DNA of 64,000 nucleotides from Chitinophagaceae bacterium (GCA_947469485.1 CANIPU010000003.1:132870-196869), one strand, 5' to 3'; numbered from the stretch's first letter, positions 1,929 to 36,677 are shown. Notes: generated by a model from the letters alone, not told the origin. Program-made: numbers and translations.

Positions 1929-1959
1929 TTGAGAAAAGGTGGGTTTATTGGCGGAAGGG

Positions 1960-3171: not shown

Positions 3172-3284
3172 GAATTCAATAAGGTAAACATAAAAATTAA
3201 ACAGAAAACTATTGCCCGCTTCTGTGAATTAAGTGAACAGAATGAAAGGAATTCGCTTAAATCAATTCAGTGTTATTCAGAGGC

Positions 3285-3292
3285 TATATTTG
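3285..3292 (+). promoter_or_regulatory. Bacteroidota-type -7 promoter box (TATATTTG = TAnnTTTG)
   Basis: Exact TAnnTTTG match 22 nt upstream of ATG 3314, whose product starts with a clean signal peptide. The box lies inside the longer ORF-track extension, which argues for the 3314 start. Confidence 0.4.
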
Positions 3293-3313
3293 GCGCTCAT
3301 TTTATATAGACAT

Positions 3314-20344: not shown

Positions 20345-21739
20345 TCACTCCACAACAATTTTCTTTCTAAGAATATTATTCTGCTCATCTCTGAGTTCGC
20401 AGAAATAAACTCCGCTTTTTACAGGAAGTGTAACAGTTGTTGAGGCATCAGTAATTTCTGTTTCATAAATTTTCTCTCCCAGTAAATTATAAATCTCAAT
20501 CATCTGGTTGGCGTTGGTTTCAACTGTGAAATTTCCATTTGAAGGATTCGGATAAATATTTAAGTAGGTAGAATTTACTTCCACCACTCCTGCTGCATTA
20601 TGTGTGATTTCAAATTCAGAGGAGCAGGTATCACCATTGTAAACAGCGCGGAAAGTATAAATGCCATCTGTCGTAGGCAGCACTTTTGAATAAGCCCATA
20701 AGCCCACCAGGGTGCTTGCATTGCTGGTGTAAGTCCAATTGAGATAAGTTGACCCGTTCGGATTCAGAATACTTATATCGGCAATCAGTCCGCTCACTTC
20801 ATTGCGAAGGAAAATATAAAACTTCGCATAGCCGGGAGCTAAGCTTGGACCCTGAAACGGAATCTGATAAGTGGTGCTTTCATTCGGAGTTTCAGTAGCG
20901 GGGCATGCCGGAAAAACCGCATCAGTAATATTTACCGATACTTTTATTACCGCTGTTTCTAAATAGGATTTCTGAGCAGCCCACCACGATGAAGCGTTTA
21001 ACAAATTGCAAGTACCTGAGAAAGGGTCAACTCTTGTTGCCGCTGTGTTGCCGCTCCATATTTCAAAATGCAGGTGTGGTCCCGATGAGCTTCCTGAACT
21101 TCCAACCACTCCGATATGATCTCCCGTTGCAACCGGCTGACCAATGGCCACCGAAGTAATCGAATTCTTTTTCATGTGCCAGTACAAAACAGTTGAACCA
21201 TCTGCGTGCTGAACTATGACATAATTAGCTGTTAATCCGCTGCCAACTCCAACACAATTTTTGTCGAACTCGCCATCGTGTTTATCAATAATAATTCCTG
21301 GCGCGGCCGCAACTACTTCTACTAAATCATTGTCCATCTTTACAAAAGGATAGGGCCATATAGCAATATCGGTTCCGCCATGACCATCGTAAGCAATTGT
21401 TCCGCAGTTATAATCCTGAAAGGCGCCACTGGCTGTATTCTGGTCAACATGTGCTGAAATAAAGTAGTAACTGCAATCGTGCAAATTCACTGATGGCTTC
21501 AGTGGCCACTGCAACAGAGTAACAGCGCGGCCTCCGCTCGCGAATGAACTGCTGTCAATGTGCAGTGCTTTCATATTGTCACTTATTCGTTTTTCAATCA
21601 GTGTATATTCCAGTGCAGAAATACAAGGGTTGCTTGCATCAGTTTCTGTAACCGTATTTATTTCAGAAAGATTTTGCGCCTGGGTTTTAATAGTAAACAC
21701 GGCACACAAAACAACGAGTGTAAAAATTCTTTTCATCAT
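20345..21739 (-). CDS. M23 family metallopeptidase with T9SS C-terminal sorting domain
   Basis: HxxxD/HxH series: GHGGTDIA...GDHIGVVGSSGSSSGPHLHFEIW. C-terminal IYPNPSNGNFTVE...GVYFCEL...KIVVE. Confidence 0.85.
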   Translation of the reverse strand: MMKRIFTLVVLCAVFTIKTQAQNLSEINTVTETDASNPCISALEYTLIEKRISDNMKALHIDSSSFASGGRAVTLLQWPLKPSVNLHDCSYYFISAHVDQNTASGAFQDYNCGTIAYDGHGGTDIAIWPYPFVKMDNDLVEVVAAAPGIIIDKHDGEFDKNCVGVGSGLTANYVIVQHADGSTVLYWHMKKNSITSVAIGQPVATGDHIGVVGSSGSSSGPHLHFEIWSGNTAATRVDPFSGTCNLLNASSWWAAQKSYLETAVIKVSVNITDAVFPACPATETPNESTTYQIPFQGPSLAPGYAKFYIFLRNEVSGLIADISILNPNGSTYLNWTYTSNASTLVGLWAYSKVLPTTDGIYTFRAVYNGDTCSSEFEITHNAAGVVEVNSTYLNIYPNPSNGNFTVETNANQMIEIYNLLGEKIYETEITDASTTVTLPVKSGVYFCELRDEQNNILRKKIVVE

Positions 21740-21846
21740 GGAAAGATTTATACGCAAGTTACCGAATTTCTATTCGTGCCCATGCCCTCCGATATACAAG
21801 TGGCGGTGTTAACTGTACAGTCGGGAGAAGTTTTTAACTCACTGCT

Positions 21847-22470
21847 TTATTGCTTTATCAATTTCGTGCGGCTTATAACAGCACCACCTGAAACCAGTTC
21901 AATAAAATATATTCCTGTTGACAGCGATTGAATATTCAAAACTTCTGTGTTTTTCATTGCCCGGGTCTGATGCAATATTCTTCCCGACAAATCAATAACC
22001 TGAATGGTGTTGCCCGCAAGACGGTTGCTGTGAACAGTTACACGGTCGGCAGCAGGATTTGGATAAACGCGCACATCAGTGTGATAAAATAAATTTTGCA
22101 CTCCCGTTGATGTATCGGCAATGGTAATGGGGAAACTGCATCCCAATGAATCATAGAACATGTAGTAAAGATTCAGGTAGCCGGAGAACGGAAGCACGAG
22201 TGGAGCCATCACCACCATTTCGTGCAGCTGTGGTCCGCCGCCAATGCCGAAGTAGGTCACATTTTCCTTTGCAATGGTATCCATGTTGGAATCAAACAAT
22301 ATAAAGCCGGGATAACCAAACAGCTCCGTTGTTGTATTCGATGCATTGAGTGAAATGGTATCGTTGCCGAGCGTACAGCAATCAATAACCAGCGAATCGC
22401 ACTGCGGAAGATTCTGTGCATGAATAAAAAACGGAACAGAAAAAAAGAATGCGAGAATGTATTTTTTCAT
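21847..22470 (-). CDS. T9SS C-terminal-domain secreted protein, function unknown
   Basis: Signal peptide MKKYILAFFFSVPFFIHAQ. C-terminal VYPNPAADRVTV...GIYFIEL...KLIKQ. Confidence 0.6.
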   Translation of the reverse strand: MKKYILAFFFSVPFFIHAQNLPQCDSLVIDCCTLGNDTISLNASNTTTELFGYPGFILFDSNMDTIAKENVTYFGIGGGPQLHEMVVMAPLVLPFSGYLNLYYMFYDSLGCSFPITIADTSTGVQNLFYHTDVRVYPNPAADRVTVHSNRLAGNTIQVIDLSGRILHQTRAMKNTEVLNIQSLSTGIYFIELVSGGAVISRTKLIKQ

Positions 22471-22551
22471 TGAAGTGGGTTTATTGCAACGCAAGTTAAG
22501 AAAAACAAACCGGCCTGTTTAGTTTTCTCATCACTTGCTATTCCTGTATTT

Positions 22552-22881
22552 TCAACGCGCTGAATACATCACCAGCGTATTTTCTTCATTGCGCAATTTT
22601 TTATCGGTGATAAAAGTTCCGAACGGAATGAGCGAAGCACCAACTCCCACAGCAACACGAAATACCGGCCATCGCTTTGCGCGCCACACATACAGCAGTG
22701 CAGTTATGTATAAGATAAATAATGCGCCATGAATCCATCCGGTTATTAGAACAGCCTCCGGAATATCTGCCAGGTATTTCAGGGGCATGGCAATCAATAA
22801 CAGAAACAGAAAAGAAATTCCTTCAGCAATTCCCGCAATGCGCAATCGACCGATTGCCGTGTTTGAAAATTTAAGACTCAT
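22552..22881 (-). CDS. DUF3817-family membrane protein
   Basis: LRIAGIAEGISFLFLLLIAMPLKY...GWIHGALFILY matches the DUF3817 pattern. 109 aa. Confidence 0.7.
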   Translation of the reverse strand: MSLKFSNTAIGRLRIAGIAEGISFLFLLLIAMPLKYLADIPEAVLITGWIHGALFILYITALLYVWRAKRWPVFRVAVGVGASLIPFGTFITDKKLRNEENTLVMYSAR

Positions 22882-22946
22882 TGTGCAATAATATCATTCA
22901 ATTGCAAATTCATTTTTAGTTTTTGTAATGATACTTGCACTTATTT

Positions 22947-22975
22947 AGTACTTGTATAGACTAAGTACTTTTTTT
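22947..22975. terminator. Terminator-like hairpin at the 3' end of island gene A
   Basis: AGTACTT (22947-22953), a 9-nt loop and AAGTACT (22963-22969), followed by T6 on the + strand. The A-run precedes it on the - strand, so it is canonical only in the + orientation although the adjacent gene is on -. Confidence 0.35.
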
Positions 22976-23565
22976 CATTGCAACGACCATGGAGGTAGTC
23001 CCTTTTTTTTATTTGCACTACTCACCTTTTCATAAACATCCTTTTTTGCTGCTGCAAAAAGTAATCTCATTCGTTGCGCTCCCTCCAGGTAATGTGCTTT
23101 CATTTTTCCGGGTGTGGTTATTTCATACTGAAGATATATTGATGCCGGATTATCTTCTTCTTCCTTTTCAAAATGGTAATCACCTGTGTATTTCAATCCG
23201 AAATTACTTGCAGCTTTTGCAACCGCGCGCTCAAGTTTATCAGGATGAATCCGGATGAACGAATCTTCACTCAGGTAAAGGAGAAACTGAAGTTCAAGAA
23301 AGAACTTTTTATTGGTTCGCTTAATAATCAGCAGGGGATCAGTTTTCAGTAAATCCGGACATTCAACCAGGCACTCACATTTTTTTGGATATAGCTGTTC
23401 ATCAAAATCAAGGAATTCAAAAAATCTTTTTTTTGAAAGTCCTGTCATAGTAATCTCATTCACAAAAAGTTCAGATCGCATACAGTACTTTTTTGCTCGC
23501 CGAAAGAAAACATTAATGGCTGCTTGTTCCTTTGCAGAAACAGACATGTTTCTGAAGAGTGTCAT
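22975..23565 (-). CDS. Hypothetical protein, island paralogue A (unknown family)
   Basis: 196 aa. Alignable with the 192-aa ORF at 23763-24341 through GLSKKRFFEFLDFDEQLYP / GLSKENFYSFLDFDASLYP, ECPDLLK / ECSAPHLK, AKAASNFGL / AKAAKQYGL and EGAQRMRLLF / EGLNRLSQLF. Confidence 0.55.
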   Translation of the reverse strand: MTLFRNMSVSAKEQAAINVFFRRAKKYCMRSELFVNEITMTGLSKKRFFEFLDFDEQLYPKKCECLVECPDLLKTDPLLIIKRTNKKFFLELQFLLYLSEDSFIRIHPDKLERAVAKAASNFGLKYTGDYHFEKEEEDNPASIYLQYEITTPGKMKAHYLEGAQRMRLLFAAAKKDVYEKVSSANKKKGLPPWSLQ

Positions 23566-23669
23566 TCCGAAGAAATTTTATGAATGTAATTATAAATTAA
23601 ATAGGCTGCTTTTAATTTCCTGCCATAGAAAAATCTTTTCATCATTGAAAGAAGAGAAAGTTTCACGCA

Positions 23670-23786
23670 ATGGCTGAAGTCCACTCCACTCAAACCCGCA
23701 GCTACAACATGAACCGCATTAAGAGCAAGAACACCAAACCCGAAATGCTGGTGCGGAAATTTCTATTTCACTTTCTTTTTTCTTAG
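23670..23786 (+). pseudogene. vsr: vsr 5' fragment 1 (very-short-patch repair endonuclease, N-terminal 33 codons only)
   Basis: Below the ORF-track size cut-off. It translates MAEVHSTQTRSYNMNRIKSKNTKPEMLVRKFLF, then the unrelated HFLFS*. RSxNMSxIKxKNTKPEmxVRKxLf is the conserved Vsr N-terminus. The catalytic part is absent. Confidence 0.7.
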
Positions 23787-24341
23787 CGCAATTTCTTTTT
23801 CCATTGCCTCATAATATTTTTCCTCTGCATCGGAAAACAACTGCGACAATCTATTCAATCCTTCTTTGAAATGTTCGGCCATATTACCCTTTGGTGCAAC
23901 ATGGTAATTAATATAGAACTCCAGATTAGTATCAAAGTCTTCCATATCATCCGGGTCCACATATAAGCCATATTGCTTTGCTGCCTTAGCTGCATTCATG
24001 TAAACTTTAACGAGATTGATATTTACTCTGGTGAGTTCCTCTTCAACAATGCAACAAAAATATTTCAATGCTATTTTTTCACCCGGTCTTTCAATATTAA
24101 ATACCGGGTTAATTTTTTTCAAATGTGGGGCTGAACATTCAATTAACATTCTCAGATCATGCGGATAAAGCGATGCATCAAAATCAAGAAACGAATAAAA
24201 ATTTTCTTTCGACAATCCGAAGCATTCAATCGTATTCAGGCAGAAGTCTGCCGACCGCGATAATTTTTCTGCCTTGTTATACAAAGCATCTGCAAGCCGG
24301 CTGTCTTCTTCGCTTTTAAATTCGCTGTCGTTCCTTTTCAT
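23763..24341 (-). CDS. Hypothetical protein, island paralogue B (unknown family)
   Basis: 192 aa, paralogue of 22975-23565. Its stop codon (TAG, 23763-23765) is the complement of Leu codon 32 of vsr fragment 1. Confidence 0.6.
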   Translation of the reverse strand: MKRNDSEFKSEEDSRLADALYNKAEKLSRSADFCLNTIECFGLSKENFYSFLDFDASLYPHDLRMLIECSAPHLKKINPVFNIERPGEKIALKYFCCIVEEELTRVNINLVKVYMNAAKAAKQYGLYVDPDDMEDFDTNLEFYINYHVAPKGNMAEHFKEGLNRLSQLFSDAEEKYYEAMEKEIALRKKKVK

Positions 24342-24401
24342 AATTTTAAAACTTGATTATTAAAAACGAAACTAATTTTAATTTATTATTTATCATGTGT
24401 T

Positions 24402-24518
24402 ATGGCTGATGTGCACAATAGGAAAACCCGCTCTTACAACATGAGCCGCATTAAGGGCAAGAACACAAAGCCCGAAATGCTGGTGCGGAAATTTCTTTTT
24501 GCGCACGGAGAATTATAA
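24402..24518 (+). pseudogene. vsr: vsr 5' fragment 2 (N-terminal 36 codons only)
   Basis: It translates MADVHNRKTRSYNMSRIKGKNTKPEMLVRKFLFAHG, then EL**. It stops where an intact Vsr would continue with the F/Y-R-Y-R motif. Confidence 0.75.
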
Positions 24519-24566
24519 TGATTGCAGGATAAAAATTTATTATTTACAATTGAGTAATATTCATTT

Positions 24567-24971
24567 ATGATTGAGGTTACTTGTGCAATTATTCTGAAAG
24601 AAAATAAAATCTTAGTAACTCAAAGAAGTGAAAAGATGAAACTGCCTTTGAAGTGGGAGTTTCCCGGAGGAAAGATTGAAAAAAATGAAACAGAAGAAAA
24701 CTGTTTATTAAGAGAGATAAAAGAAGAACTCAATTTAGAAATTGAAATCATAGAAAAATTAGAATCAAAAAGTTTTGATTATGAAACTTTCTCAATAAAT
24801 CTCATTCCGTTTGTTGCAAAGTATTTGAAAGGTGAAATTGTTTTAAGTGAGCATAAAGATTTCAAGTGGTTAACGAAAGAAGAGTTAAAATTTTTGGATT
24901 GGGCTGCTGCTGATATTCCTGTATTAGATGAATATTTAAAATTGAATTATGATGAATCAAGGGCTCTATGA
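24567..24971 (+). CDS. NUDIX hydrolase, MutT/NudG-like (deoxy)nucleoside triphosphate pyrophosphohydrolase
   Basis: Nudix box GGKIEKNETEENCLLREIKEELNL (Gx5Ex7REUxEExGU, with N at the last G). WEFPGGK and the AIILKENKILVTQR N-terminus are typical of the MutT/NudG subgroup. The last 23 nt overlap the downstream gene. Confidence 0.85.
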   Translation: MIEVTCAIILKENKILVTQRSEKMKLPLKWEFPGGKIEKNETEENCLLREIKEELNLEIEIIEKLESKSFDYETFSINLIPFVAKYLKGEIVLSEHKDFKWLTKEELKFLDWAAADIPVLDEYLKLNYDESRAL

Positions 24972-27900
24972 GCAACTCATAAACAAAATGATTTTGTCCA
25001 AGCTAAATGAATTGGACAGAAATAAATTTCACATAAAGGAAAGTGAGATTGACAAGAGTGAAGCCGCAAGAATTCTATCCCAATATTTAGGGGAAGTAAT
25101 TCAATTTGGTCTTAATTCAATTTCAGGTGATGATAGTATTGAAAAGCAAATTGAACTATCGAACAAAATAATTTCCCTTCTGAGAACGGAGTTGAAAGAC
25201 GAAGAGTTTGATGAGGATTTGATTGCTACAGAAGCAAAAATTCTTTCAGCAATATTTAAAAAGCTTGATGCAAAGTTTTCTGACTTTGAAAAACATCTCA
25301 AAGAAATAACTCCTTATACAAGATTATCACAAAGCGAATTGTTCACTGGAAACAATGCGGGCATTTCTCTTGAAAGCGAAATCAAAAAAGAAATTCTTTC
25401 ATCTGATAAAATCAATTTCCTTGTTTCATTTATAAAGTGGACTGGAATAAGAATATTTGAAAAGGAATTATTTGAATTCACAGAAAGAGGCGGACTATTA
25501 AAAGTGATTACTACTTCATACATGGGTGCTACTGATTTGAAGGCAGTAGAATATTTATCAAGTTTGAAGAATACAGAAATCAAAGTTTCATATAACACAG
25601 ACAATGAAAGGTTACACGCAAAAGCATATTTGTTTTTGCGAGATACAGGATTTCATACTGGCTACATAGGTTCATCAAATATTTCTCGTTCTGCACTTAC
25701 AAATGGTTTAGAGTGGAATCTTAAAGTGACAACAAAAGAGGTTGGACATATCATTGATAAATTCCAAAAGACATTTGAAACTTATTGGTTGGATAAGGAA
25801 TTTGAATTGTTTGACAAAACAATTCATACAGAGAAGTTAAGGATTGCTTTAAAGACAGAGAGAATACATGAACGAAATAATCCTGCTGCTTACTTTGATA
25901 TAAAACCATTTCCTTTTCAAGAAGAGATTCTTGAAAAGTTAGAGACAGAAAGAATTGTCCACAACCGCTTTAGAAATTTAATTATTGCTGCAACAGGAAC
26001 GGGCAAAACAGTTATTTCTGCATTTGATTTCAAGAACTTTAAGAAGAAAAATCCATCAGCAAAACTTTTGTTTGTCGCACACCGAAAAGAAATATTGCAA
26101 CAAGCACAAGCAACATTTCAAGGAATTTTGAAAGACAACAATTTTGGAGAGTTGTGGGTTGACGGACTTGAACCTGAAAAATATGATTGTGTTTTTGCTT
26201 CTGTTCAAACACTAAATAATAGGATTGCCACACTGAATCTTTCAGAATCATTTTATGATTTCATTATTGTAGATGAGGTTCATCACATTGCAGCTTCAAG
26301 TTATCGTCCGATTTTAAATCGGTTCAAACCCAAAATTCTTTTGGGATTAACTGCAACTCCTGAGAGAATGGATGGAGAAGATATTCTAAAAGATTTCTGT
26401 GATACGATTGCTGCTGAAATCAGATTGCCGGAAGCATTAAACAGAAAATTGCTGTGTCCATTTCAGTATTTCGGTATTACAGATAGTGTTGACTTGTCAA
26501 ATGCCACATGGCAAAATGGAAAATACTTGCCAAGTGAACTCACAAGAATTTATACTCAAAATGATAAACGAATTGGAGAAATAATTTCTAACCTCAATAA
26601 ATATCTTAGAGATATTAATGATGTAAGAGCACTTTGCTTTTGTGTCACTCAAGAACATGCTCAGTTCATGGCAGAGAAATTTTCACTTGCTGGATTGAAA
26701 GCTGATTATTTAGTAAGTTCAAGAAATGAATTGAGAGAAGAGTTAAGACGAAAATTTTTAAGCAAGGAAATCAATTACCTTTTTGTAGTTGACATATTTA
26801 ATGAGGGAGTTGATATACCAGACATTGATACAATTTTATTTCTCAGACCAACAGAAAGCTTAACTGTATTTCTCCAACAACTTGGAAGAGGATTGAGATT
26901 AGCTGAGGGCAAGGAGTGTTTGACCGTTTTAGATTTCGTTGGCAACTCACGACCCGAATATGATTTTGAAAACAAGTTCAGGGCACTGGTAGGAAAAACA
27001 AATACAGCAATTCAAAAAGAGATTGAAGATGATTTTCCGCATTTGCCTTTAGGATGCACAATTGTATTGGAGAAAAAAGCAAAAAAGTTTATTCTACAGA
27101 ATATTTATAATGCAACTCTTCATAACAGAAATCAATTGCTTACTAAAATTCGAAACTACAAGCATCAAACAACACTACCTCTTTCTCTAAAAAACTTTTC
27201 AAATTTTTATCATATTCCTCTGCAATACATTTATAAGAGAGGGAACTGGAAAAGACTGTGTGCTGACGCTGAACAAATTGAAAACTATCCAACAACAAAT
27301 GAAAATGAAATTAAAAGAGCCATCAGTAACAAGTGGCTTTCATGCAATTCAAATTCTTACTTCCAATTTATTTTATCATTAGCAAAAAAGAATTTCAATA
27401 TCAATTTAAACAATCTTAATGATGAAGAAAAGTCAATGTACTTAATGCTTCATTATGATATTTGGCAAGATGAGGGTGGTTTCGATTCTCTAGAAGAAAG
27501 TATCAAATCGATTGGGAAGAATAAAGCATTGACAGAAGAAATAATTGAAGTCCTTGAAATACTAATTGACAAAATTGATTTTCTTGAAAGAGAAATTAAG
27601 CTTTCATATTCTCAACCACTTAAACTTCATAGTAGATATACGCGCGAACAAATATTAGCCGCATTTGAATTTCACACCTTCAATAAAAAATCATCAAATC
27701 GAGAAGGAGTTGCTGAGAATAAAAAAACAAAGACTGAATTACTTTTTGTTGAACTAATAAAATCTGAAAAAGATTTTTCTCCATCTACTCTTTATAAAGA
27801 TTATGCTGTAAGTGAGAAAATATTTCATTGGCAATCTCAAAATTCTGCAATGCCAGAAAGTGGCAAAGGACTCTCTTATATCACTCACAAAGTAGATGAC

Positions 27901-28089
27901 AAAACTGTTTTACTTTTTGTAAGAGAGAGAAATGCAGATGAGTTTGGAATAACTATGTCCTATGTTTTTTTAGGCGAGGTTACCTATAAGGATCATTATG
28001 GAAGAAAGCCAATGAGTATTAATTGGGAATTAAAAGAACCTATTCCACCATATTTATTAAAGGATTCTGTTAAGATGGCGGTAGGATAA
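24949..28089 (+). CDS. SauUSI-like PLD-nuclease / SF2 helicase / DUF3427 protein (candidate type IV modification-dependent restriction enzyme)
   Basis: 1046 aa. PLD motif is ERLHAKAYLF...YIGSSNISRSAL (His codon near 25615). Walker A is AATGTGKT (about 25987-26010) and the DEAH box is VDEVHH (about 26272-26286). Helicase C strings are VDIFNEGVDIPDIDTILFLRPTES...QQLGRGLR. The C-terminal ~250 aa (PLKLHSRYTREQILAAFEF...HWQSQNS) resembles DUF3427. Confidence 0.8.
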   Translation: MMNQGLYEQLINKMILSKLNELDRNKFHIKESEIDKSEAARILSQYLGEVIQFGLNSISGDDSIEKQIELSNKIISLLRTELKDEEFDEDLIATEAKILSAIFKKLDAKFSDFEKHLKEITPYTRLSQSELFTGNNAGISLESEIKKEILSSDKINFLVSFIKWTGIRIFEKELFEFTERGGLLKVITTSYMGATDLKAVEYLSSLKNTEIKVSYNTDNERLHAKAYLFLRDTGFHTGYIGSSNISRSALTNGLEWNLKVTTKEVGHIIDKFQKTFETYWLDKEFELFDKTIHTEKLRIALKTERIHERNNPAAYFDIKPFPFQEEILEKLETERIVHNRFRNLIIAATGTGKTVISAFDFKNFKKKNPSAKLLFVAHRKEILQQAQATFQGILKDNNFGELWVDGLEPEKYDCVFASVQTLNNRIATLNLSESFYDFIIVDEVHHIAASSYRPILNRFKPKILLGLTATPERMDGEDILKDFCDTIAAEIRLPEALNRKLLCPFQYFGITDSVDLSNATWQNGKYLPSELTRIYTQNDKRIGEIISNLNKYLRDINDVRALCFCVTQEHAQFMAEKFSLAGLKADYLVSSRNELREELRRKFLSKEINYLFVVDIFNEGVDIPDIDTILFLRPTESLTVFLQQLGRGLRLAEGKECLTVLDFVGNSRPEYDFENKFRALVGKTNTAIQKEIEDDFPHLPLGCTIVLEKKAKKFILQNIYNATLHNRNQLLTKIRNYKHQTTLPLSLKNFSNFYHIPLQYIYKRGNWKRLCADAEQIENYPTTNENEIKRAISNKWLSCNSNSYFQFILSLAKKNFNINLNNLNDEEKSMYLMLHYDIWQDEGGFDSLEESIKSIGKNKALTEEIIEVLEILIDKIDFLEREIKLSYSQPLKLHSRYTREQILAAFEFHTFNKKSSNREGVAENKKTKTELLFVELIKSEKDFSPSTLYKDYAVSEKIFHWQSQNSAMPESGKGLSYITHKVDDKTVLLFVRERNADEFGITMSYVFLGEVTYKDHYGRKPMSINWELKEPIPPYLLKDSVKMAVG

Positions 28090-28476
28090 TTCTATCTTGC
28101 TTGCAAACTCATCGAATATCTTTTTTGCTTTTTCCAAATCTTTTTCATTGGCAATTTCATTTGGCAAATAAATTTCAGTCCATGAGTAAATTCTGTTTTT
28201 ATTAAGCGGAAATCTTTCACGCACATTAAAACCTTTCCGCTCTGCGATTGACCTTATTTTTTTGGGAATTAGTCCTTCACACATAATACACCAACATGGT
28301 TTAAGACCATTAAATTTTTCAGAGAAATGAGAATGAAATCCAGAACTACTTGTTAGAATTCTAAATTTATTTAAAACGCCAACTGCCTTATAGACTGGTG
28401 TTTCAATATATGCGTCAACATCAGGATTATATATTTCTGTAAATCCTTCTTGATTAATTCTTTCCTGCAATTTCAT
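28057..28476 (-). CDS. Hypothetical protein (139 aa), convergent with and overlapping the SauUSI-like gene by 33 bp
   Basis: ORF-track ORF; no family was recognised. Contains a CWCIMCEG cysteine cluster. Its 3' end overlaps 28057-28089. Confidence 0.45.
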   Translation of the reverse strand: MKLQERINQEGFTEIYNPDVDAYIETPVYKAVGVLNKFRILTSSSGFHSHFSEKFNGLKPCWCIMCEGLIPKKIRSIAERKGFNVRERFPLNKNRIYSWTEIYLPNEIANEKDLEKAKKIFDEFASKIELSYRHLNRIL

Positions 28477-28527
28477 TTCATAAAAAAAGTAAAAAGGGTT
28501 TTTCCATCCAACGGACTATACGCACCA

Positions 28528-28698
28528 TCACAATTTCCTTTTCTCCAATCTTACAGCACGCTCGCCGGTACGGTACCACTGATTGTTTTTGCGCACCCAA
28601 AAAGTTTTTGAAAGAAAATAGTACTTACCCTCCTCCCCTATCTGCCATTTCAGTAACAGTAGCTGTAACAGCAAAGAGGAAGATAAATTAAATTTCAT
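28528..28698 (-). CDS. Possible small ORF (56 aa)
   Basis: Below the ORF-track cut-off. My translation is MKFNLSSSLLLQLLLLKWQIGEEGKYYFLSKTFWVRKNNQWYRTGERAVRLEKRKL. It has protein-like composition, is on the same strand as both neighbours and ends 51 nt upstream of the 139-aa ORF. Confidence 0.25.
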   Translation of the reverse strand: MKFNLSSSLLLQLLLLKWQIGEEGKYYFLSKTFWVRKNNQWYRTGERAVRLEKRKL

Positions 28699-28789
28699 TT
28701 TTTCTGCAGTGGATATAAATAGCCGGAGCGCTTTTAAAAATTGAATGGTAATTAAAACCCACAGCCCGCGGTTTGCATTGATAAGCCGT

Positions 28790-29248
28790 TTATATTTTTT
28801 CTTTCTCTATTTTTTTATGAAAGTCAAGATACATGGGTAATGCAGCTGAGCCATACCATCTGATCAATTCAACAGCAAATACTTTTTGTTGAATGGCAGG
28901 ATCGGTTTGTAATAGCGCCTGTGCTTCTTCAGTTGTTTGTACATTCAGAATAAAGAGCCCGCGGTATTCTTTATCATTTTTTCCAAACGGACCTGCAACA
29001 AGCAGCTTGCCTGCATCAGCTAAACGATTAATGTTTGCAATATGCCCCCTGAATAAACTATCAGACAAGGCCTTGTCTTCTATTTTATTGGCCCCTGTTT
29101 TCAGAATTACGAATATGTAACTATTCATTCCGTATTCATCGGCTCCCAACGAATCGGCAAGCGTTTTATCATATAGTGGATTACCGGTCTGGCATACTGC
29201 AGCCATACTGTAACTGAGAGAGAGAAAAAGAATTAGAAGGTATTTCAT
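28790..29248 (-). CDS. YciI-family protein with signal peptide
   Basis: IFVILKTG...HIANINRLADAGKLLVAGPFG...GLFILNV.TTEEAQALLQTDPAI matches the YCII-related domain pattern. The N-terminus MKYLLILFLSLSYSMAAVCQ is a signal peptide. Confidence 0.7.
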   Translation of the reverse strand: MKYLLILFLSLSYSMAAVCQTGNPLYDKTLADSLGADEYGMNSYIFVILKTGANKIEDKALSDSLFRGHIANINRLADAGKLLVAGPFGKNDKEYRGLFILNVQTTEEAQALLQTDPAIQQKVFAVELIRWYGSAALPMYLDFHKKIEKEKI

Positions 29249-29408
29249 TTTTTAAATTTTAGTTCTTCAGGAGTATAAAATTAGTTTGTGCTCTGAAGAA
29301 ACAAAGAACCGTTTCAAATAGACTACCTTTGAAAATCATATACAGAGGCGGAGCATTGCTGCGTATATTAAGTCAGCATTTTTACACCTGTTTTAAATTT
29401 TAAAAGAA

Positions 29409-29663
29409 ATGGCACGCGAACTAAAACGGAACTCATTAAAGAACGGATTTTACATTGAGGTTTGCTCCATGGGCTCAAGGCAGGGAATAAAAATTGCTTC
29501 TGAAACCCTTCAGGAAATGCTGAAGCAGCAGGATGCCTACAAGGCAAACAAGTATGTAATTGTATGGGGCGAACACAAGGATGGAAAATGGCTGCATGAA
29601 AAAAAGATGCCTGCCGAACCCACTGTACCTAAAGCACCTAAGCTGAAGAAAGCTTTGATATAA
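29409..29663 (+). CDS. Hypothetical small basic protein (84 aa)
   Basis: Only an ORF-track ORF with a lysine-rich C-terminus. No family was recognised, and an antisense ORF of similar size also exists. Confidence 0.3.
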   Translation: MARELKRNSLKNGFYIEVCSMGSRQGIKIASETLQEMLKQQDAYKANKYVIVWGEHKDGKWLHEKKMPAEPTVPKAPKLKKALI

Positions 29664-29780
29664 ATTTTTGTTATTAGGAGCTTGCCGGGCATTTTGTTTT
29701 CTGTTCAATATTCCGGGCCATTGTCAGTAAAATATTTTTTATGCGATTCTCAGCGCCTTCGTTTTTAACTTTAAATCGGT

Positions 29781-30053
29781 AGTTGTATTTATTGTCGGCT
29801 GCAGTTTGCCTGTTTTATTAAGCAGTTTGTTTATTACCAAACTGAGTTTGCTAATTGTTAAATGCAGTTTAATAACTGTAAAATTTAAATCCAAAGTTGT
29901 AGGGCGTGCTTTGTTAATAATAATTCCCGGCTTGTTAATGATTGCATGCTGATTGTTAATTGCTTTTTTCATTTTCATAATTAGCAAAGTGACTTTGTCT
30001 GCTATCAAAATAGGTTTGTTAATGAACAAAGCTGTATTCACAGCTATCAAAAA
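29781..30053. repeat. Array of about 12-13 degenerate tandem repeats on an exact 21-bp grid (core TTGTTAAT)
   Basis: A TTG core falls at 29806, 29827, 29848, 29911, 29932, 29953, 29995 and 30016, all congruent modulo 21. The exact octamer TTGTTAAT occurs at 29911, 29932, 29953 and 30016. 7/8 variants are TTGTTTAT at 29827 and TTGCTAAT at 29848. Degenerate units fill the remaining grid positions. Confidence 0.75.
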
Positions 30054-30338
30054 GTGCCTGAAGCGTTTATTTGGAATTTTATGGCAATAGCCTGTAGTGG
30101 CACACAAGCCGCATATGTGCCAAAAGAAGTTGTAGAATGAAGCAAAAACACCCTCTTGAAACCGGCTAAAAAATAAATTTTTTTGCCCTGAAAAAATCTG
30201 CTTCCTGTAAATAATTGGCTTATTGTTACTTTTAAAAAACGCTGTTTTTTTAATAATTTAAGCGAAAATTTCAGTATAATATATTTATGTAATATATCCA
30301 AATTTATTTTTATTTCAATTCGGCGTGCCAAAAAAAAA

Positions 30339-30371
30339 TTTGCAAATGGCTGAGCAGCAATTATATGTTTG
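30339..30371 (+). promoter_or_regulatory. Candidate Bacteroidota promoter (-33 TTTG, -7 TATGTTTG) for the FN3 gene
   Basis: TTTG at 30339-30342 and TATGTTTG (TAnnTTTG) at 30364-30371, with a 21-nt spacer, 41 nt upstream of ATG 30413. An A9 tract lies immediately upstream of the -33 element. Confidence 0.35.
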
Positions 30372-30412
30372 GGGTGCGAATAATTTTTTTTAACAAACTA
30401 AAAATTAAAATC

Positions 30413-31036
30413 ATGACAAAGAGATTGATTCCTCGGCTCGGGCTTTCAAAGTTGAATTCCCTGGCATTTGCGCAGTTTGTTGCTTACATCATTACTGCGT
30501 TAACCGGCAATGCGGCTTTTCCGGCCCCATCGCCCACGCTTGTTGCGCTTCAGGCGAAATTAACTGAACTGAAAAATGCCATTACCGATGTAAGTGCTCG
30601 GGTGGCCGGCGCCATTGAACTGCGCAACCAGATCAGGAACGAACTGGTTATAATGCTCACCGAGCTTGCCAACTACTGTGTGGTGGCAGCTGCAGGTGAT
30701 GCAGCGGTTTTTAAAACCAGTGGTTTTGAGTTGCGGAGAACACCTCAACCCGCACCCGACCCGCTGGACCCTGTAAAAAATACGCGACTGGTGCTAACCG
30801 GCGACGAAACTGAACTTCGTTTACTATTTGACCCTGTACGCTATGCCAAGAGCTACGAAATATACATGAGCCTTGATGATGATCAGCATTTTACTTTTTA
30901 CTCTACCACATCTGGCCAGCGTTTTTTGCTGCGAAACCTCTTACCGGGGAAGAGGTACTTTGTAAAAGTGAAGCCGGTTGGCCCAAAGGGCATTAAAGGT
31001 GGTTTTGGTGAAATTGCAAGCCGAATAGCCGCTTAA
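30413..31036 (+). CDS. Hypothetical protein with C-terminal fibronectin type III-like domain
   Basis: Start moved to MTKRLIPRLG because the ORF-track start lies inside the -7 box. The C-terminus LRLLFDPVRYAKSYEIYMS...LLPGKRYFVKVKPVGPKGIKGGFGEIA is FN3-like. It is visibly GC-richer than the flanks. Confidence 0.6.
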   Translation: MTKRLIPRLGLSKLNSLAFAQFVAYIITALTGNAAFPAPSPTLVALQAKLTELKNAITDVSARVAGAIELRNQIRNELVIMLTELANYCVVAAAGDAAVFKTSGFELRRTPQPAPDPLDPVKNTRLVLTGDETELRLLFDPVRYAKSYEIYMSLDDDQHFTFYSTTSGQRFLLRNLLPGKRYFVKVKPVGPKGIKGGFGEIASRIAA

Positions 31037-31259
31037 ATTAAATTGTTGATTTTTTTCATAGGTGTTTTTTTTGATGAAAGCGCTTTCAGCTGTAAAAGGC
31101 CGGGGCGCTTTTTTTATTCTTTTGCCCTGAATAATTAACCTAAATAAAAAGTTAATCGGGCGAAAACTGAGTTTCAACGAATATTAACATACACTTAACA
31201 GATTGTTGATTTTTATAAAATACATATAGACGAGGTTTGCATTACAAATACAAATAGCC

Positions 31260-31361
31260 ATGTCGAGTTTAATTCTTGCCTGTTCCATTTTCTTCGTTCT
31301 GTTCTGCTACATCGCTGTCAGCGTTGCTGCTTATAACAGAAAGAAATCAAAGGGACACTAA
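31260..31361 (+). CDS. Possible 33-aa single-TM peptide
   Basis: It translates MSSLILACSIFFVLFCYIAVSVAAYNRKKSKGH*: a hydrophobic helix followed by a basic tail. The only support is the ORF and its composition. Confidence 0.2.
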   Translation: MSSLILACSIFFVLFCYIAVSVAAYNRKKSKGH

Positions 31362-31504
31362 TATCTAAGGGGGTTAATATAATGAGGTTTTATACCCCTC
31401 TCCCATCCCTGTTTTATCGGTAGGGGAGAAGTATGTTTCACGGGAAACAATGCAATTATTGTTTTGCATATCAATCAATTAGCACAAAAAAAACAGTTGA
31501 AATA

Positions 31505-31927
31505 TTACCTGTTGTTCAGAAGATTCAGGTAGAAATCTTCTTTAGCGCGCATTGCCTTTTGGTGAGCAGGTTTTTTGTCTTTATAACCACAAAGGTGAAG
31601 CACCCCGTGAAATAAAACCCGGTTCAATTCTGTTTGGAACGGTTGCTTAAAAGTTTCGGCATTTTCCTTCACACGATCAATTGAAATAAAAACATCGCCT
31701 GATACTTCGTCGTGCGCGGTATAATCGAAAGTTATAATATCGGTAAGGGTATCGTGATTCAGGTATTGTTTGTTCAGCTCAAGCAGGTATTTATCGGAGC
31801 AGAAAATATAATTGAGTTCGCCGATTTCATGTTCCTCGGTAAAGGCAATGAGGTGAATAAATTCAGAAAGCTTTTTGGAATTCTTTAATTTGAAAGAGGG
31901 CAATAGAGAGTGAAAATCAATGGGCAT
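31505..31927 (-). CDS. ybeY: rRNA maturation endoribonuclease YbeY
   Basis: HGVLHLCGYKD (HGxLHLxGYDH zinc motif). 140 aa. Confidence 0.9.
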   Translation of the reverse strand: MPIDFHSLLPSFKLKNSKKLSEFIHLIAFTEEHEIGELNYIFCSDKYLLELNKQYLNHDTLTDIITFDYTAHDEVSGDVFISIDRVKENAETFKQPFQTELNRVLFHGVLHLCGYKDKKPAHQKAMRAKEDFYLNLLNNR

Positions 31928-31954
31928 ACAAATGTTTCCCGTGAAACATACTGA

Positions 31955-32374
31955 TTAAATGGTAAAGTGAATAGCTACTTTACTGCCGTTGTCGCTGAAT
32001 TCAACTGAATCAGACAGTGCTTTCATCAGAAATATTCCTCGGCCGGTAATTTTTTCAATATTGGCAGGGTCCGTTGGGTCGGCCACATTATTAAAATCAA
32101 AACCTGCGCCCTGATCTTTAATAGTAAATACAACTTCTTTATCTTTTTTATCAACGCGCAGAAGCACCGATTTTGAAGCATCATTTTTATTACCCAGTTC
32201 AATGGCATTTTTCACAGCTTCACCCACAGCCACAAGCATATTGTTTCTGATATCTTCCCCCAAACCAAGAGTAGAACCGATATCGTCAATCATTGCTTCC
32301 ACTCTGTGCATACTGTCTATGCGTGAGGGTAATTCTATTTCGGCGTGTTTCATTTCCGTAATCATAGGGAACAA
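31955..32374 (-). CDS. HATPase_c-type anti-sigma regulatory factor-like ATP-binding protein (RsbW/SpoIIAB-like)
   Basis: N-box VGEAVKNAIELG, G1 IKDQGAGFD and G2 TGRGIFLMKALSD. 139 aa. Confidence 0.75.
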   Translation of the reverse strand: MFPMITEMKHAEIELPSRIDSMHRVEAMIDDIGSTLGLGEDIRNNMLVAVGEAVKNAIELGNKNDASKSVLLRVDKKDKEVVFTIKDQGAGFDFNNVADPTDPANIEKITGRGIFLMKALSDSVEFSDNGSKVAIHFTI

Positions 32375-32381
32375 ATGTAAT

Positions 32382-35300
32382 TTACTTAGATAATGTTTTA
32401 AAGTAGTCTTCCACTAAACTTTTGTAAAAAGGCTGAAGGTCGGGCGAAACGGTTTTATACAGTTCCAGTTCAGCTTGTTTCTTTTTAAGGTATTCTTCCA
32501 GAGAAGGAGGGATGGGCCTCGACATTTCATTACCGCTTTGCGATTCGCGCTTGTTATCCTGATCGCGCTCGCGCTGTGCATTTTCGGCATCAAGCAATTT
32601 GTTCAGAATTTCCTGCTGTCGCATAAGTGTTTCTGGAGTCAATTGTTTGTTCAAAAGTTCTTTTTCCGTTTGCTCCATTTGTTCCTGCAACTCACCCAGG
32701 TTTCCCAATGAACCTTTACCGTCTTTATTCATCTGGTCATTTAACTGGCGAAGCATTTCGCGAATGGCGCCCTGCTGTTGCGCTAATTTAGCAGCATCTT
32801 CACTTGGAATTCCGCCTGAACCATCCCCGGGTTTCTGACCGGGCTTTTGTCCGGGTTTATCGCCTGGCTTTTTACCATCCTTCATTTTCTCGCCCAACTC
32901 ATTCATTTTATCATTGAGTTGTTTTTGCATTTGCCCCATTGAACCCGGCTTTGGCTTGGAACCTCCCGGCTTTTTGCACATGGCGCTACCTGGCTTTGCA
33001 TTGGCCATTTGCTGCTGCATCTGCTGCATTACCTCATCAAACATGAGGGCAAGATTGTTTACAGCAGTCATTATAAATTGCTGATTAACAGCAGCCACAT
33101 TGGGTTGCCGCGCCTCCAGATTTGATATGGATAATTCGGCATTCTTTTTTATATCGGCAATTTGATCGTTGGCAAACTGTTTAATCTGGAAAACCTTTTT
33201 GCTCAGTTCCTGAATGCTGTCTTCCACCATTTTAAAATCAGCCTCAAGGTCTTTCTGGTCCTTCATTATCTGAAGGTATTTTGGATTGTAAATATTTGTT
33301 GCCTTGGTCTGGTCAATAAGGTCTTCCTGTTCAAATGATATTTTAATAAGGTTATCAAGTATCTGTCGGATTGCCTGCATGTCCAGTTCCATCTGTTCGG
33401 ATTCTGCACTTTCCATTGCAGCATCCATTTTATCAGCAAGCTGTTTCATTTTATCAGCAGCGCTCTTCTGACTTTTTGATGCCTTGCTGTTGCTTTTCTT
33501 CTGTAACTCGCTGCCAGCTTGCTTTTGGTCGCTGTCAATGGATTCTTCTTCCGGCTGGGTTTCAGGCATTTCAACAGGTTCGTCAAGCTCTTTATTCAGT
33601 GAATCAAGTTTGTCGAGATCTTTTTGAACATCATCAAATTTCTTATTCAGTTCATCCTGTTTTTTTGTAAGTTCCTCAGGAGAATCTTTTTTATTTTCAG
33701 TATCCTTACTCAAATCATCCTGCTCTTTTGATAATTCTTTCAGTTTATCAGAAGTGGCTTCCATCTTCTGCTCAAATTCCATTTTCTTAAACAGCGATAG
33801 CATTCGGTCCAGCTCCTTTTGCAGGTCTTCGTTATTTGCTTTCTGGTCCTTGAGTTTGTCCATTGCATCCTCCTTGTCCATTTTCTCCATCATCTCTTTG
33901 AGCTTCTCCATCATGTCTTTCATTTCAGGAGTAAGCACCTGATTGGCAAGCTCTTGCAATTGTTTTTGTTTTTCTTTCAGTTCGGGCGAAAAGTTTTGAA
34001 ACTGATTTTGTTGTGCTGCATTTTCATTCATTTTCTGCTGCACATTTTCCACATCCTTCATTACCTTTTTTTGCTTTTCCAGCAAATCATCCATTTTCTT
34101 TTTGTCCTCCCAGTTCAGATCTTTCTTCTGCATTAATTCATCACTGAGTTTCTGTAGTTCTTCGGTAATTTTTTGTGCGGCAGTTAGTGATGACTGAAGT
34201 TTTTCTTTAATGTTATCGTTGTTTTTCTCTGTTTGATTTTCCAGTTCTTTCAATGAAGGCATTTGATAAACCATGGCCTGCGAGCGCGATGATTTGCTTC
34301 CGCTCACTTCATCGTTGTCCCATACTTCAAAAAAATAATCAACACGATCACCCGGTTTTAACTGAATGCCGGTTAAATCCCACACATAGGAGAAATGATC
34401 GTTTTTGTCTTTTGAAATCTGAATAGGAATTGATTGCAGATTTGTTTTACCGGAATCTTCGTGTTGTATCTGAAACTGTAACTGCAACTTTTTCAGTCCG
34501 TAATCATCTGTGGCATCACCTGCGAAATACATTATGGAGTGTTCAGTGCTGTCCTGCATTTGTGCAACAGAAATCTGCGGATACATATCGGGCACAACCG
34601 TAATGGTATATTTAACTGAGTCAGCATTGTTCAATTGATTACCTGAAAGCAGCAGTGTGTAAGGAAAATCTTTCATCATCCTGCGCTGAAACAAGAACGA
34701 ACCGCTTCCTTCATTGCGGGCAGAGGAAGTGGAGTCAGCTAAACGAAAAGAAATAGTTGAAGTGTTCTTTGAAAAAAACCGCCACTTGATTCGTGTACCC
34801 TGCGGAACAACAAGATCGCCGATGTTTTGCATTGATTCATTTTTCCGGCCTGTATAAGATGGATATTCCAATGCAGTTTCAAATTTGAGAATCACCGGCT
34901 TTGGCAAAACTTCAATTTTATAATCTTTGGAATTAAATCCGCCGGCACTTAAATTAAAATCAACTGATGCTTGTAACCTCGAAAATTTATAGACGAAAGT
35001 GTTCTTGTTTTTCTTTTCAAGCTTGTATGGATAACCTTCGTATTGAACAAACACTTCGTCAGGAAGCGCGCTGCCATTGACTTTCACCTCTAATTCATAA
35101 TCTTCATACTGAATGGCTGTCAGGTTTTTATTTTGAATTACGAACTGAAAAGGGGCCAGTTTTTCAAATGCGGTTTGGTTGTGAATGAGTCGCGCCGCGC
35201 TTTCGCGTAAAACATTAGGTGCGGCAAATAAGATGAAGACAAACACGAGTAGGGGAGGAACCAGAAATCGTAAATATTTTCGGTTGCTGCTGTATTGTAC

Positions 35301-35744
35301 AGCAGCTGTAAACGGAACGGGCTTCAGCTGAGCTGCTTTTTGATTAATACTTGCCTCAATCAACGAAGAATCCTGAGCTGAAACAGATTGTTCGCGCAGT
35401 TGTAAAATATTGAGTAAGCGGTCCTGCACTTCGCTGAAATGATTACCTACAATTTTTGCAGCTTCCTCGTGAGAAATGATTTTACCAAGACGGAAATAAT
35501 GAATTAAAGGAAGAATAACAAGCCGCAACAACACAACAAATGCAGTTAACAGTAAACTCCAGAAAAGAATGGTGCGTACAGTTGTTCCGAAATAAAAATA
35601 ATATTCTGACACTGCTGTTACCAGAAAGGCTCCGATTAACAAACCACCCGAAAGTATAATACCACGAACCAAGCGGTTCATATAATACTTGCGAATAAAA
35701 GCATCGAGTTTGAGGAGGAGTAAACTATAGGCGCTTTCGTTCAT
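32382..35744 (-). CDS. Large membrane-anchored coiled-coil protein, DUF4175-like
   Basis: The N-terminus has 2-3 TM helices (GIILSGGLLIGAFLVTAV..., TILFWSLLLTAFVVLL...). A central beta-rich region is followed by ~450 aa of K/E/D/Q-rich heptad-like sequence and a KPGDKPGQKPGQKPGDGSGG low-complexity tract. The family name is recalled from memory. Confidence 0.65.
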   Translation of the reverse strand: MNESAYSLLLLKLDAFIRKYYMNRLVRGIILSGGLLIGAFLVTAVSEYYFYFGTTVRTILFWSLLLTAFVVLLRLVILPLIHYFRLGKIISHEEAAKIVGNHFSEVQDRLLNILQLREQSVSAQDSSLIEASINQKAAQLKPVPFTAAVQYSSNRKYLRFLVPPLLVFVFILFAAPNVLRESAARLIHNQTAFEKLAPFQFVIQNKNLTAIQYEDYELEVKVNGSALPDEVFVQYEGYPYKLEKKNKNTFVYKFSRLQASVDFNLSAGGFNSKDYKIEVLPKPVILKFETALEYPSYTGRKNESMQNIGDLVVPQGTRIKWRFFSKNTSTISFRLADSTSSARNEGSGSFLFQRRMMKDFPYTLLLSGNQLNNADSVKYTITVVPDMYPQISVAQMQDSTEHSIMYFAGDATDDYGLKKLQLQFQIQHEDSGKTNLQSIPIQISKDKNDHFSYVWDLTGIQLKPGDRVDYFFEVWDNDEVSGSKSSRSQAMVYQMPSLKELENQTEKNNDNIKEKLQSSLTAAQKITEELQKLSDELMQKKDLNWEDKKKMDDLLEKQKKVMKDVENVQQKMNENAAQQNQFQNFSPELKEKQKQLQELANQVLTPEMKDMMEKLKEMMEKMDKEDAMDKLKDQKANNEDLQKELDRMLSLFKKMEFEQKMEATSDKLKELSKEQDDLSKDTENKKDSPEELTKKQDELNKKFDDVQKDLDKLDSLNKELDEPVEMPETQPEEESIDSDQKQAGSELQKKSNSKASKSQKSAADKMKQLADKMDAAMESAESEQMELDMQAIRQILDNLIKISFEQEDLIDQTKATNIYNPKYLQIMKDQKDLEADFKMVEDSIQELSKKVFQIKQFANDQIADIKKNAELSISNLEARQPNVAAVNQQFIMTAVNNLALMFDEVMQQMQQQMANAKPGSAMCKKPGGSKPKPGSMGQMQKQLNDKMNELGEKMKDGKKPGDKPGQKPGQKPGDGSGGIPSEDAAKLAQQQGAIREMLRQLNDQMNKDGKGSLGNLGELQEQMEQTEKELLNKQLTPETLMRQQEILNKLLDAENAQRERDQDNKRESQSGNEMSRPIPPSLEEYLKKKQAELELYKTVSPDLQPFYKSLVEDYFKTLSK

Positions 35745-35931
35745 GATGTAAATGTAGTGTACTGTACAAACAAAAATTGTGCAGGGTTATTGTTCAGACT
35801 AACACAAGAATAAAAATAGTGGTTCAACACAGTTTACCAAAACTAATTTCAGTCGGCTATACATAGATGTTAATGAATTGTATTTTCCACAAAACACAAC
35901 TGCTTTCTTCATTCTATTTTTGCCCCTGCAC

Positions 35932-36630: not shown

Positions 36631-36677
36631 TTGGGTAAAAACAAGAGGGTGATTTTGTAAGATTATTGAAAATAAAA

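Follow-up and report, generated by a model that had tools for sequence, protein, structure and literature searches.

In a 64,000-nucleotide (nt) stretch of DNA from a Chitinophagaceae bacterium (GCA_947469485.1, CANIPU010000003.1:132870-196869; hereafter the window), positions 24567-28089 are best explained as a compact, horizontally acquired two-gene defence cassette, in which a NUDIX hydrolase is accessory to a SauUSI-type nuclease and which occupies a former or variable slot for a 5-methylcytosine (5mC) restriction–modification (RM) system. We put the probability of this reading at roughly three in four. The NUDIX gene (24567-24971, + strand) encodes 134 amino acids (aa) and the nuclease gene (24949-28089, + strand) 1046 aa; a gene for a 139-aa protein (28057-28476, − strand) converges on the nuclease gene, and two 5' remnants (stubs) of vsr lie upstream of the pair. 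The three open reading frames (ORFs), their overlaps of 23 and 33 nt and the motifs quoted in a preliminary description of the locus, made from the sequence alone, were all found in place. The large gene opens with ATGATG, and the gene callers used for public contigs take the second ATG (24952), which gives a protein of 1045 aa and an overlap with the NUDIX gene of 20 nt instead of 23 nt.

A NUDIX gene coupled to a SauUSI-family nuclease gene

The 1046-aa protein combines a PLD nuclease, a superfamily 2 (SF2) helicase-like ATPase, a coupler and a DUF3427/SRA-like recognition domain, in that order. This is the architecture of SauUSI (SAUSA300_2431; PDB 7CLG), with the catalytic and helicase motifs conserved. 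Pfam detected PLDc_2 (E = 2e-10), ResIII (E = 2e-39), Helicase_C (E = 5e-12) and DUF3427 (E = 4e-30, residues 783-1037), and the sequence carries HAK at residue 223, GSSNISRS at 241, AATGTGKT at 347, DEVHH at 442 and QQLGRGLR at 643. The SauUSI structure 7CLG matched residues 135-1012 (E = 2e-81), and the PADLOC model mREase_IV, which describes type IV methyl-directed enzymes, matched near end to end (E = 6e-227), in agreement with the SauUSI-like architecture proposed earlier. Comparing individual residues, we found that H223, K225, N244 and E255 of the PLD domain align with H119, K121, N139 and E150 of SauUSI, mutation of any of which abolishes activity (PMC3141236). A 5mC pocket has been modelled for SauUSI, formed by Asp-858, Trp-868 and Phe-841, with Tyr-831 as the proposed methyl contact (PMC7913695); in the alignment to 7CLG, D858, W868 and F841 correspond to D951, W961 and F933 of the window nuclease. 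Judged from these alignments, membership of the SauUSI family is solid, whereas the exact modification preference is less certain.

By homology to SauUSI, the way in which the nuclease would act can be outlined with high confidence. The C-terminal DUF3427/SRA-like domain would flip out and recognise a modified cytosine of the 5mC or 5-hydroxymethylcytosine (5hmC) class, the exact modification being uncertain; recognition would turn on the SF2 ATPase and drive translocation along the DNA, and the dimeric N-terminal PLD domain would then cleave.

The 134-aa protein matched Pfam NUDIX (E = 8e-19) and NUDIX_4. Its Nudix box, G35-x5-E41-x7-R49-E50-I-K-E53-E54-L-N56-L, departs from the canonical sequence only in having Asn for the last Gly, and the earlier label "almost canonical" fits it well. 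Running PADLOC on the proteins, a check that the preliminary description had proposed, assigned the NUDIX protein to PDC-S07 over its full length (E = 5e-51) and the large protein to mREase_IV; the 139-aa ORF had no match. Both assignments cover the proteins essentially end to end, PDC-S07 itself being a PADLOC candidate only, inferred from defence-island context. The best PDB match of the NUDIX protein was 5X1X (E = 5e-31; 45-46% identity), the closest among solved structures. The 5X1X sequence is identical at 122 of 122 positions to S. aureus WP_000755954.1, whose gene has its stop codon 1 nt before the sauUSI ATG. The structure is thus that of the NUDIX protein encoded next to sauUSI (SAUSA300_2432), and both window genes are homologues of the S. 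aureus pair SAUSA300_2432/2431, which shares their order and orientation and has frames that, as here, nearly abut or overlap. Unlike the S. aureus locus, the cassette described here resides in a Chitinophagaceae host and has vsr stubs and the unrelated 139-aa gene as its neighbours. Going by these sequence matches, we consider the family assignment of both proteins very probably correct.

The preliminary description had placed the NUDIX protein in a NudG-like subgroup. The protein does lie nearer NudG (95 bits with the NCBIfam model NF007834, its best NCBIfam match) than MutT (77.6 bits), and PDB scores follow the same trend, with 65 bits for NudG 2RRK and 46 bits for MutT 1MUT. With E. coli NudG (Orf135; PDB 2RRK) it shares size, the Nudix box, the WEF-GGK motif and a C-terminal EH...W...A-A/P-A-D-I-P motif, the aligned sequences being, as judged by eye, roughly a third identical. 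Whereas the window gene is paired with a nuclease gene, NudG is a housekeeping gene that stands alone. Its protein is closer to NudG than to MutT, yet by its sequence would not count as a NudG orthologue. Phage NUDIX families match it as well (phrog_1198, E = 3e-25).

Conservation of the pair and a proposed task of the NUDIX protein

Analysing 75 homologous nuclease loci from GTDB genomes (L001-L075), of which 68, from Bacteroidota, had enough upstream DNA to be scored, we found a NUDIX gene directly upstream and on the same strand as the nuclease gene in 44 of the 68. Stop and start overlapped by 4-23 nt in 38 of 45 pairs, with 4, 7 and 23 nt as typical values, and the identities of the two proteins to their window counterparts were correlated (Spearman 0.75, n = 35). 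A search seeded with the window NUDIX recovered an adjacent nuclease homologue in 22 of 70 loci, and one seeded with 5X1X in Bacillota and Actinomycetota did so in 40 of 78, including Staphylococcus, Bacillus relatives, Clostridium, Corynebacterium, Nocardioides and Microbacterium. Altogether, the pair was seen in Bacteroidota, Bacillota, Actinomycetota, Nitrospirota and Desulfobacterota. Around the nuclease loci surveyed, no recurring neighbour other than NUDIX was found, and a search of a plasmid collection yielded, besides the S. aureus NUDIX, no more than distant homologues of the nuclease. The NUDIX gene as a coupled upstream partner, as first described, is therefore confirmed, and its adjacency to DUF3427 enzymes is conserved in several phyla. 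We are confident, at close to nine chances in ten on the same scale of judgement as the family assignment, that the pair is conserved and co-inherited.

This linkage, presented earlier as the notable part of the locus, is real, but it is not new. A conserved MutT/NUDIX gene beside S. aureus sauUSI, and at least 60 SauUSI-like enzymes so linked, were published in 2011 (Xu et al. 2011, PMC3141236), a nudix deletion followed in 2012 (PMC3312211), PADLOC models both genes (PDC-S07 and mREase_IV), and a Streptococcus suis survey found PDC-S07 and type IV RM co-localised in 23 of 23 cases (bioRxiv 10.1101/2025.08.29.672906, 2025). Our additions are the range over which the coupling is conserved, the recognition that 5X1X is the SauUSI partner, and the locus context described below, with its vsr stubs, the HpaII-type RM system that a related genome has at this site, and a domain family without annotation that is linked to Dcm–Vsr modules and to polyvalent proteins of phages.

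Relatives of the window NUDIX also occur beside Vsr and/or C5 methyltransferase genes and other nuclease genes, with no SauUSI-like gene adjacent (L095, L104 and L111). At ten Bacteroidales loci (L126, L134, L142, L144, L146, L151 and L157-L160), a gene for a stand-alone HSDR_N_2 nuclease domain ends about 7 nt before a NUDIX relative, a second conserved NUDIX–nuclease pairing that has no SauUSI-like gene. HNH_2 (PF13391) genes adjoin NUDIX and/or SauUSI-like genes at eight loci (L010, L046, L048, L070, L088, L099, L113 and L124) and likewise on the Pseudoalteromonas plasmid NZ_CP077771.1 (L339); this recurrence suggests islands with several modification-dependent nucleases.

In the reading that we prefer, the NUDIX protein would be an accessory that is not required for cutting, namely a NudG-like (deoxy)nucleoside triphosphate ((d)NTP) pyrophosphohydrolase that would remove modified dCTP-type nucleotides from the pool. 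It would thereby keep the host from incorporating the nuclease target into its own DNA and/or withhold a modified precursor from phages. This idea draws on the NudG-like features of the protein, on the fact that NudG, a pyrophosphohydrolase acting on pyrimidine (d)NTPs, hydrolyses 5-methyl-dCTP (O'Handley 2001, as cited in PMC3744803), and on the recurrence of the subfamily beside Vsr, Dcm and nucleases. That the enzyme hydrolyses such nucleotides, whether to protect host DNA or to starve phages, is a tentative proposal to which we give somewhat less than an even chance.

Several observations weigh against such a role, and there are two other readings of the NUDIX protein. Deletion of nudix in S. 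aureus Newman gave no gain in transformability and did not relieve restriction (Monk et al. 2012, PMC3312211), so that the protein is dispensable for core restriction activity. NUDIX is missing at 24 of the 68 scorable nuclease loci (35%), the closest relatives of the window nuclease (85-86% identity) among them. The NudG equivalog cut-off of 156 bits (NF007834) is not reached, nor are those for MutT (77.6 bits against 97.9 for TIGR00586; 74 against 148 for NF008044), and the PDC-S07 model also picks up housekeeping NUDIX genes, for example in 99% of Enterobacter genomes (PMC12851794). The protein could be an ordinary MutT/NudG-type housecleaning antimutator, fixed beside the nuclease by descent and with no tie to restriction, in keeping with the intact restriction of the S. 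aureus deletion mutant, with the nuclease loci devoid of NUDIX and with the roughly two-thirds of its nearest relatives that lie in unrelated contexts, such as next to pyruvate kinase or Sua5. We consider this improbable: the pair recurs over five phyla with overlapping frames, its two genes travel together into neighbourhoods that are otherwise unrelated, and NUDIX is the sole recurring neighbour of the nuclease. It might also be an independent anti-phage effector, a PDC-S07 single-gene system that degrades modified or canonical deoxynucleoside triphosphates needed by phages and that would do no more than share an operon with the nuclease, as a second line of defence. PADLOC does list the family as a single-gene defence candidate, relatives are found near SLFN-type helicase, NOV_C, HSDR_N_2 and HNH_2 genes in the absence of a SauUSI-like gene, and the phage NUDIX matches would suit such a function. 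Set against this are a literature search that turned up no experimental validation, the housekeeping genes caught by the same model, and the fact that the protein is tightly coupled in translation to the nuclease and inherited together with it, which suggests a common task; we regard an independent effector as unlikely, albeit a better candidate than a housecleaning enzyme.

The nuclease poses a similar question, as the Bacteroidota clade could target a modification other than 5mC or work together with adjacent C5 methyltransferases. With SauUSI the window nuclease shares no more than about 32-38% identity, and at its N terminus it is longer by some 130 residues that have no SauUSI counterpart. 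In a gapped stretch of the alignment it has Glu-923 in place of the methyl-contacting Tyr-831 and Val-921 in place of Met-829, and with Glu at the Tyr-831 position the preferred modification could differ from that of SauUSI. C5 methylase genes lie directly downstream of the nuclease gene at L001 and L017, and proteins with DUF3427 fusions have been reported to occur often beside C5 methyltransferases (Lutz et al. 2019, PMC6765204). Even so, the Asp and Trp of the base-flipping pocket are conserved, among PADLOC models the one for type IV methyl-directed enzymes fits best, with a near end-to-end match, and a methyltransferase is nearby in just 3 of the 75 loci. Since S5mCNGS is the sole target of SauUSI, coexistence with other 5mC motifs is to be expected. 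A target outside the 5mC class, or a joint action with methyltransferases, therefore seems to us a poor bet.

A variable chromosomal slot shared with a Dcm–Vsr module

To place the cassette in its chromosomal context we relied on a synteny partner found by seeding with a conserved DUF4175 gene 4 kb away, a YCII seed having given nothing. The partner is a contig of a Chitinophagaceae metagenome-assembled genome (CANJII010000003.1; L260) that blastn aligns collinearly with the window on either side, with 94% identity over window positions 22114-22470 and 73-81% over 29403-29632 and 31172-36635. These flanks, conserved in related Chitinophagaceae, delimit a variable segment (22470-29403) with a low-G+C core. 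In L260 they enclose a full-length vsr gene, a C5 DNA methylase gene and a gene for a HpaII-family endonuclease (RE_HpaII), that is, a Dcm–Vsr type II RM module. Inside the variable segment, the 5' end of vsr is the sole sequence common to the two genomes. The site is thus polymorphic between the window and L260. The window cassette has neither the methyltransferase nor the type II endonuclease of such a module, and its vsr is represented by two non-functional stubs. The slot in L260 would thus write 5mC and cut unmethylated DNA, and the same slot in the window would hold a reader of modified cytosine beside vsr debris.

The truncated vsr directly upstream of the cassette, part of the preliminary description, is real, and a second stub had been overlooked. 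Stub 2 (24402-24539, + strand), a pseudogene of about 46 codons recognised by Pfam, by tblastn with full-length Vsr proteins and by DNA alignment, covers positions 1-35 of the 74 of Pfam Vsr (E = 8e-10) and is interrupted in frame by a stop codon at 24519-24521; its end lies 28 nt upstream of the NUDIX ATG. It corresponds to the 5' end of the vsr gene that L260 carries in full length at this site. Stub 1 (23670-23768, + strand; 33 codons) was recognised by its likeness to stub 2, with 84% DNA identity over 99 nt, and by 75% amino-acid identity to the N terminus of the Vsr protein of L001. With 33 and about 46 N-terminal codons left, neither stub retains the frame of about 135-160 aa with a catalytic core that a functional Vsr has. 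Stub 1 is convergent with an ORFan gene at 23763-24341 (− strand; 192 aa), one of two paralogous ORFans that lie outside the cassette; the other (22975-23565, − strand) encodes 196 aa. The paralogues are 31% identical and have no family matches, and the 192-aa protein has no homologues beyond itself. Each is divergent from a vsr stub, and the stubs are far more alike than the ORFans.

Stubs of this kind are not confined to the window. Immediately upstream of the nuclease gene or of the NUDIX–nuclease pair, and co-oriented, full or truncated vsr was found at 10 of the 68 scorable loci (L001, L004, L007, L009, L014, L015, L064, L068, L070 and L074), or 11 with the window's own site. By comparison, 80 control Bacteroidota loci totalling 1.4 Mb gave one vsr match, located at the window's own site. 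At L100, a vsr 3' fragment (codons ~64-131; 8522-8725) begins at the very stop codon with which the nuclease homologue ends, as if the pair had been inserted inside vsr. At L068, five units of about 336 bp (1893-5399), each with a vsr 5' stub and the palindrome GAGAAATACGACTCCGGCCGGAGTCGCAATTTTC, form two sets split by a metallophosphatase gene just upstream of the nuclease homologue. We considered an integron-like array at this locus and rejected it, the units being recent tandem copies of a 336-bp unit that are 84-97% identical.

Composition and signals around the cassette were surveyed as well. The cassette has a G+C content of 30-33% against 38-43% in the flanks, which is consistent with horizontal acquisition. 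Scanning 23500-28900, we found promoter-like sites no commoner than in shuffled sequence, which gives no information on operon structure, and no terminator-like site from the vsr stub through the end of the nuclease gene. Because no such site separates the stub from the cassette, read-through from a vsr promoter, as had been suggested, may be possible. The Bacteroidota-type TAnnTTTG motif was not found upstream of the vsr stub or of NUDIX. In the whole 64-kb window, this Bacteroidota −7 promoter motif is strongly depleted, with 32 occurrences where shuffled sequences predict about 92. An Rfam scan of 21000-31000 gave a sub-threshold chance match only.

Two histories fit the polymorphism: either a Dcm–Vsr module was already resident and the cassette entered it by recombination, or a pre-formed unit of vsr stub, NUDIX and nuclease hit the same hotspot. 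We found no direct or inverted repeats of at least 10 nt at the cassette borders, no tRNA gene in the window scan and no integrase or transposase among the called genes around the cassette. With no repeats, tRNA or recombinase genes at the borders, homologous exchange is favoured but not proven. That the cassette displaced a 5mC RM system is partly shown, and we give it an even chance or slightly better.

This account also has evidence against it, to which the lack of repeats and recombinase genes at the cassette borders belongs. L015 and L004 share one junction, in which vsr is followed from about codon 58 by 34 nt and the NUDIX ATG. Compared at the sequence level, the window junction looks like a further deletion of this one, and stub 2 may, at least in part, have arrived with the cassette instead of being a resident scar. 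Furthermore, a C5 methylase gene directly downstream of and co-oriented with the nuclease gene is complete at L017 (9310-10248) and shorter at L001 (5195-6082), where the nuclease gene lies between a full vsr and the methylase gene. The nucleases of these two loci are 83-86% identical to that of the window, and so they evidently tolerate some 5mC motifs, which weakens a story of incompatibility and replacement. Together with the methyltransferase neighbours reported by Lutz et al. (2019), these loci indicate that coexistence is possible where motifs differ. A more elaborate scenario would take the vsr 5' stub as a portable homology arm: cassettes might recombine into dcm–vsr loci and overwrite an incompatible methyltransferase, the NUDIX enzyme might clear 5-methyl-dCTP or 5hm-dCTP during the switch and so keep the host from marking its DNA anew, and the 139-aa domain might serve methylating elements as a factor linked to 5mC or directed against type IV enzymes. 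We regard this scenario as speculative and rather improbable.

Further differences were noted within and near the variable segment. A YCII gene (28790-29248) lies in a piece of DNA (28640-29312) that is missing from the related contigs L168 and L261, both of which join window position ~28640 straight to ~29310; the piece is thus a separate indel inside the variable region. A gene for a 223-aa protein (30365-31036, + strand) has a 29% identical homologue at L015 (1016-1702, − strand), where some 500 nt lie between it and the vsr stub downstream. It is a second gene common to the window and L015, whose cassette neighbourhoods are otherwise unrelated.

The convergent 139-aa gene and methylation modules

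The preliminary description had suggested that the 139-aa ORF might be a third component of the system or an antisense regulator. Its convergent 33-nt overlap with the nuclease gene (28057-28089) is real, an 86% identical homologue overlaps the nuclease homologue in L168 (90% DNA identity to the window), and a 57% identical one lies 5 nt from the end of an HNH_2 nuclease gene in L086. Searching with tblastn and a family hidden Markov model (HMM), we did not find the family at the 75 nuclease loci or at 160 NUDIX-seeded loci (L088-L248 range), and other close homologues accompany Vsr and C5 methyltransferase genes instead. The last 11 codons of the ORF are the reverse complement of the sequence coding for the nuclease C terminus (YLWKDSAKMAVG, up to the stop), and this C terminus is conserved among nuclease homologues that have no 139-aa neighbour. 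The overlap is thus a by-product of the junction and not a designed feature. A third subunit or an antisense control is accordingly very improbable, and we conclude with high confidence that the two-gene cassette does not include the 139-aa ORF.

The protein had no match in Pfam, PADLOC, NCBIfam, PHROGs or the PDB sequences. A word-indexed search of 5.8 billion proteins gave 5 relatives and a full HMMER scan 33, including domains within proteins of 563-5569 aa. One of these large relatives carries Pfam LPD38, a large-polyvalent-protein domain, and lies on a phage-like contig; other distant relatives are small genes in phage or mobile-element contexts. The AlphaFold2 model had a mean predicted local distance difference test (pLDDT) score of 95. 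Foldseek found no PDB fold match for it (best TM-score 0.34), and the BFVD matches, to unnamed proteins of jumbo phages, were only weak (TM 0.4-0.5, E of at least 2e-3). A relationship to the two upstream ORFans was considered and rejected, there being no BLASTP similarity.

Closer relatives place the gene beside Dcm–Vsr modules. In L250 the order is 139-aa-like gene, DUF6471, C5 DNA methylase, Bse634I endonuclease, Vsr and HATPase_c_3; in L249 it is 139-aa-like gene, HATPase, two unknown genes, C5 methylase and Vsr; and in L251 the 139-aa-like gene overlaps Vsr, with C5 methylase and HATPase_c_3 next. L086 has a vsr 5' stub, the HNH_2 nuclease gene and the convergent 139-aa homologue, and is therefore the same vsr-stub/139-aa frame as in the window with other cargo. 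The genomic company of the 139-aa gene is cytosine methylation and not the type IV enzyme. These gene orders go part of the way to showing that the 139-aa gene and the two vsr stubs are leftovers or companions of 5mC methylation modules. The gene defines a confidently folded domain family outside Pfam that links Dcm–Vsr modules and giant phage polyvalent proteins.

Coupling of NUDIX and SauUSI-family genes that is conserved across several phyla shows that the arrangement is under selection. The breadth of this coupling, together with the recurrence of the NUDIX subfamily near Vsr, C5 methyltransferases and nucleases, leads to a concrete substrate hypothesis, modified dCTP. The chromosomal slot, where one genome holds an RM system that writes 5mC and a related genome a nuclease that would read it, with a vsr stub in common, is a clean case from nature of methylating and methylation-dependent defences in conflict.

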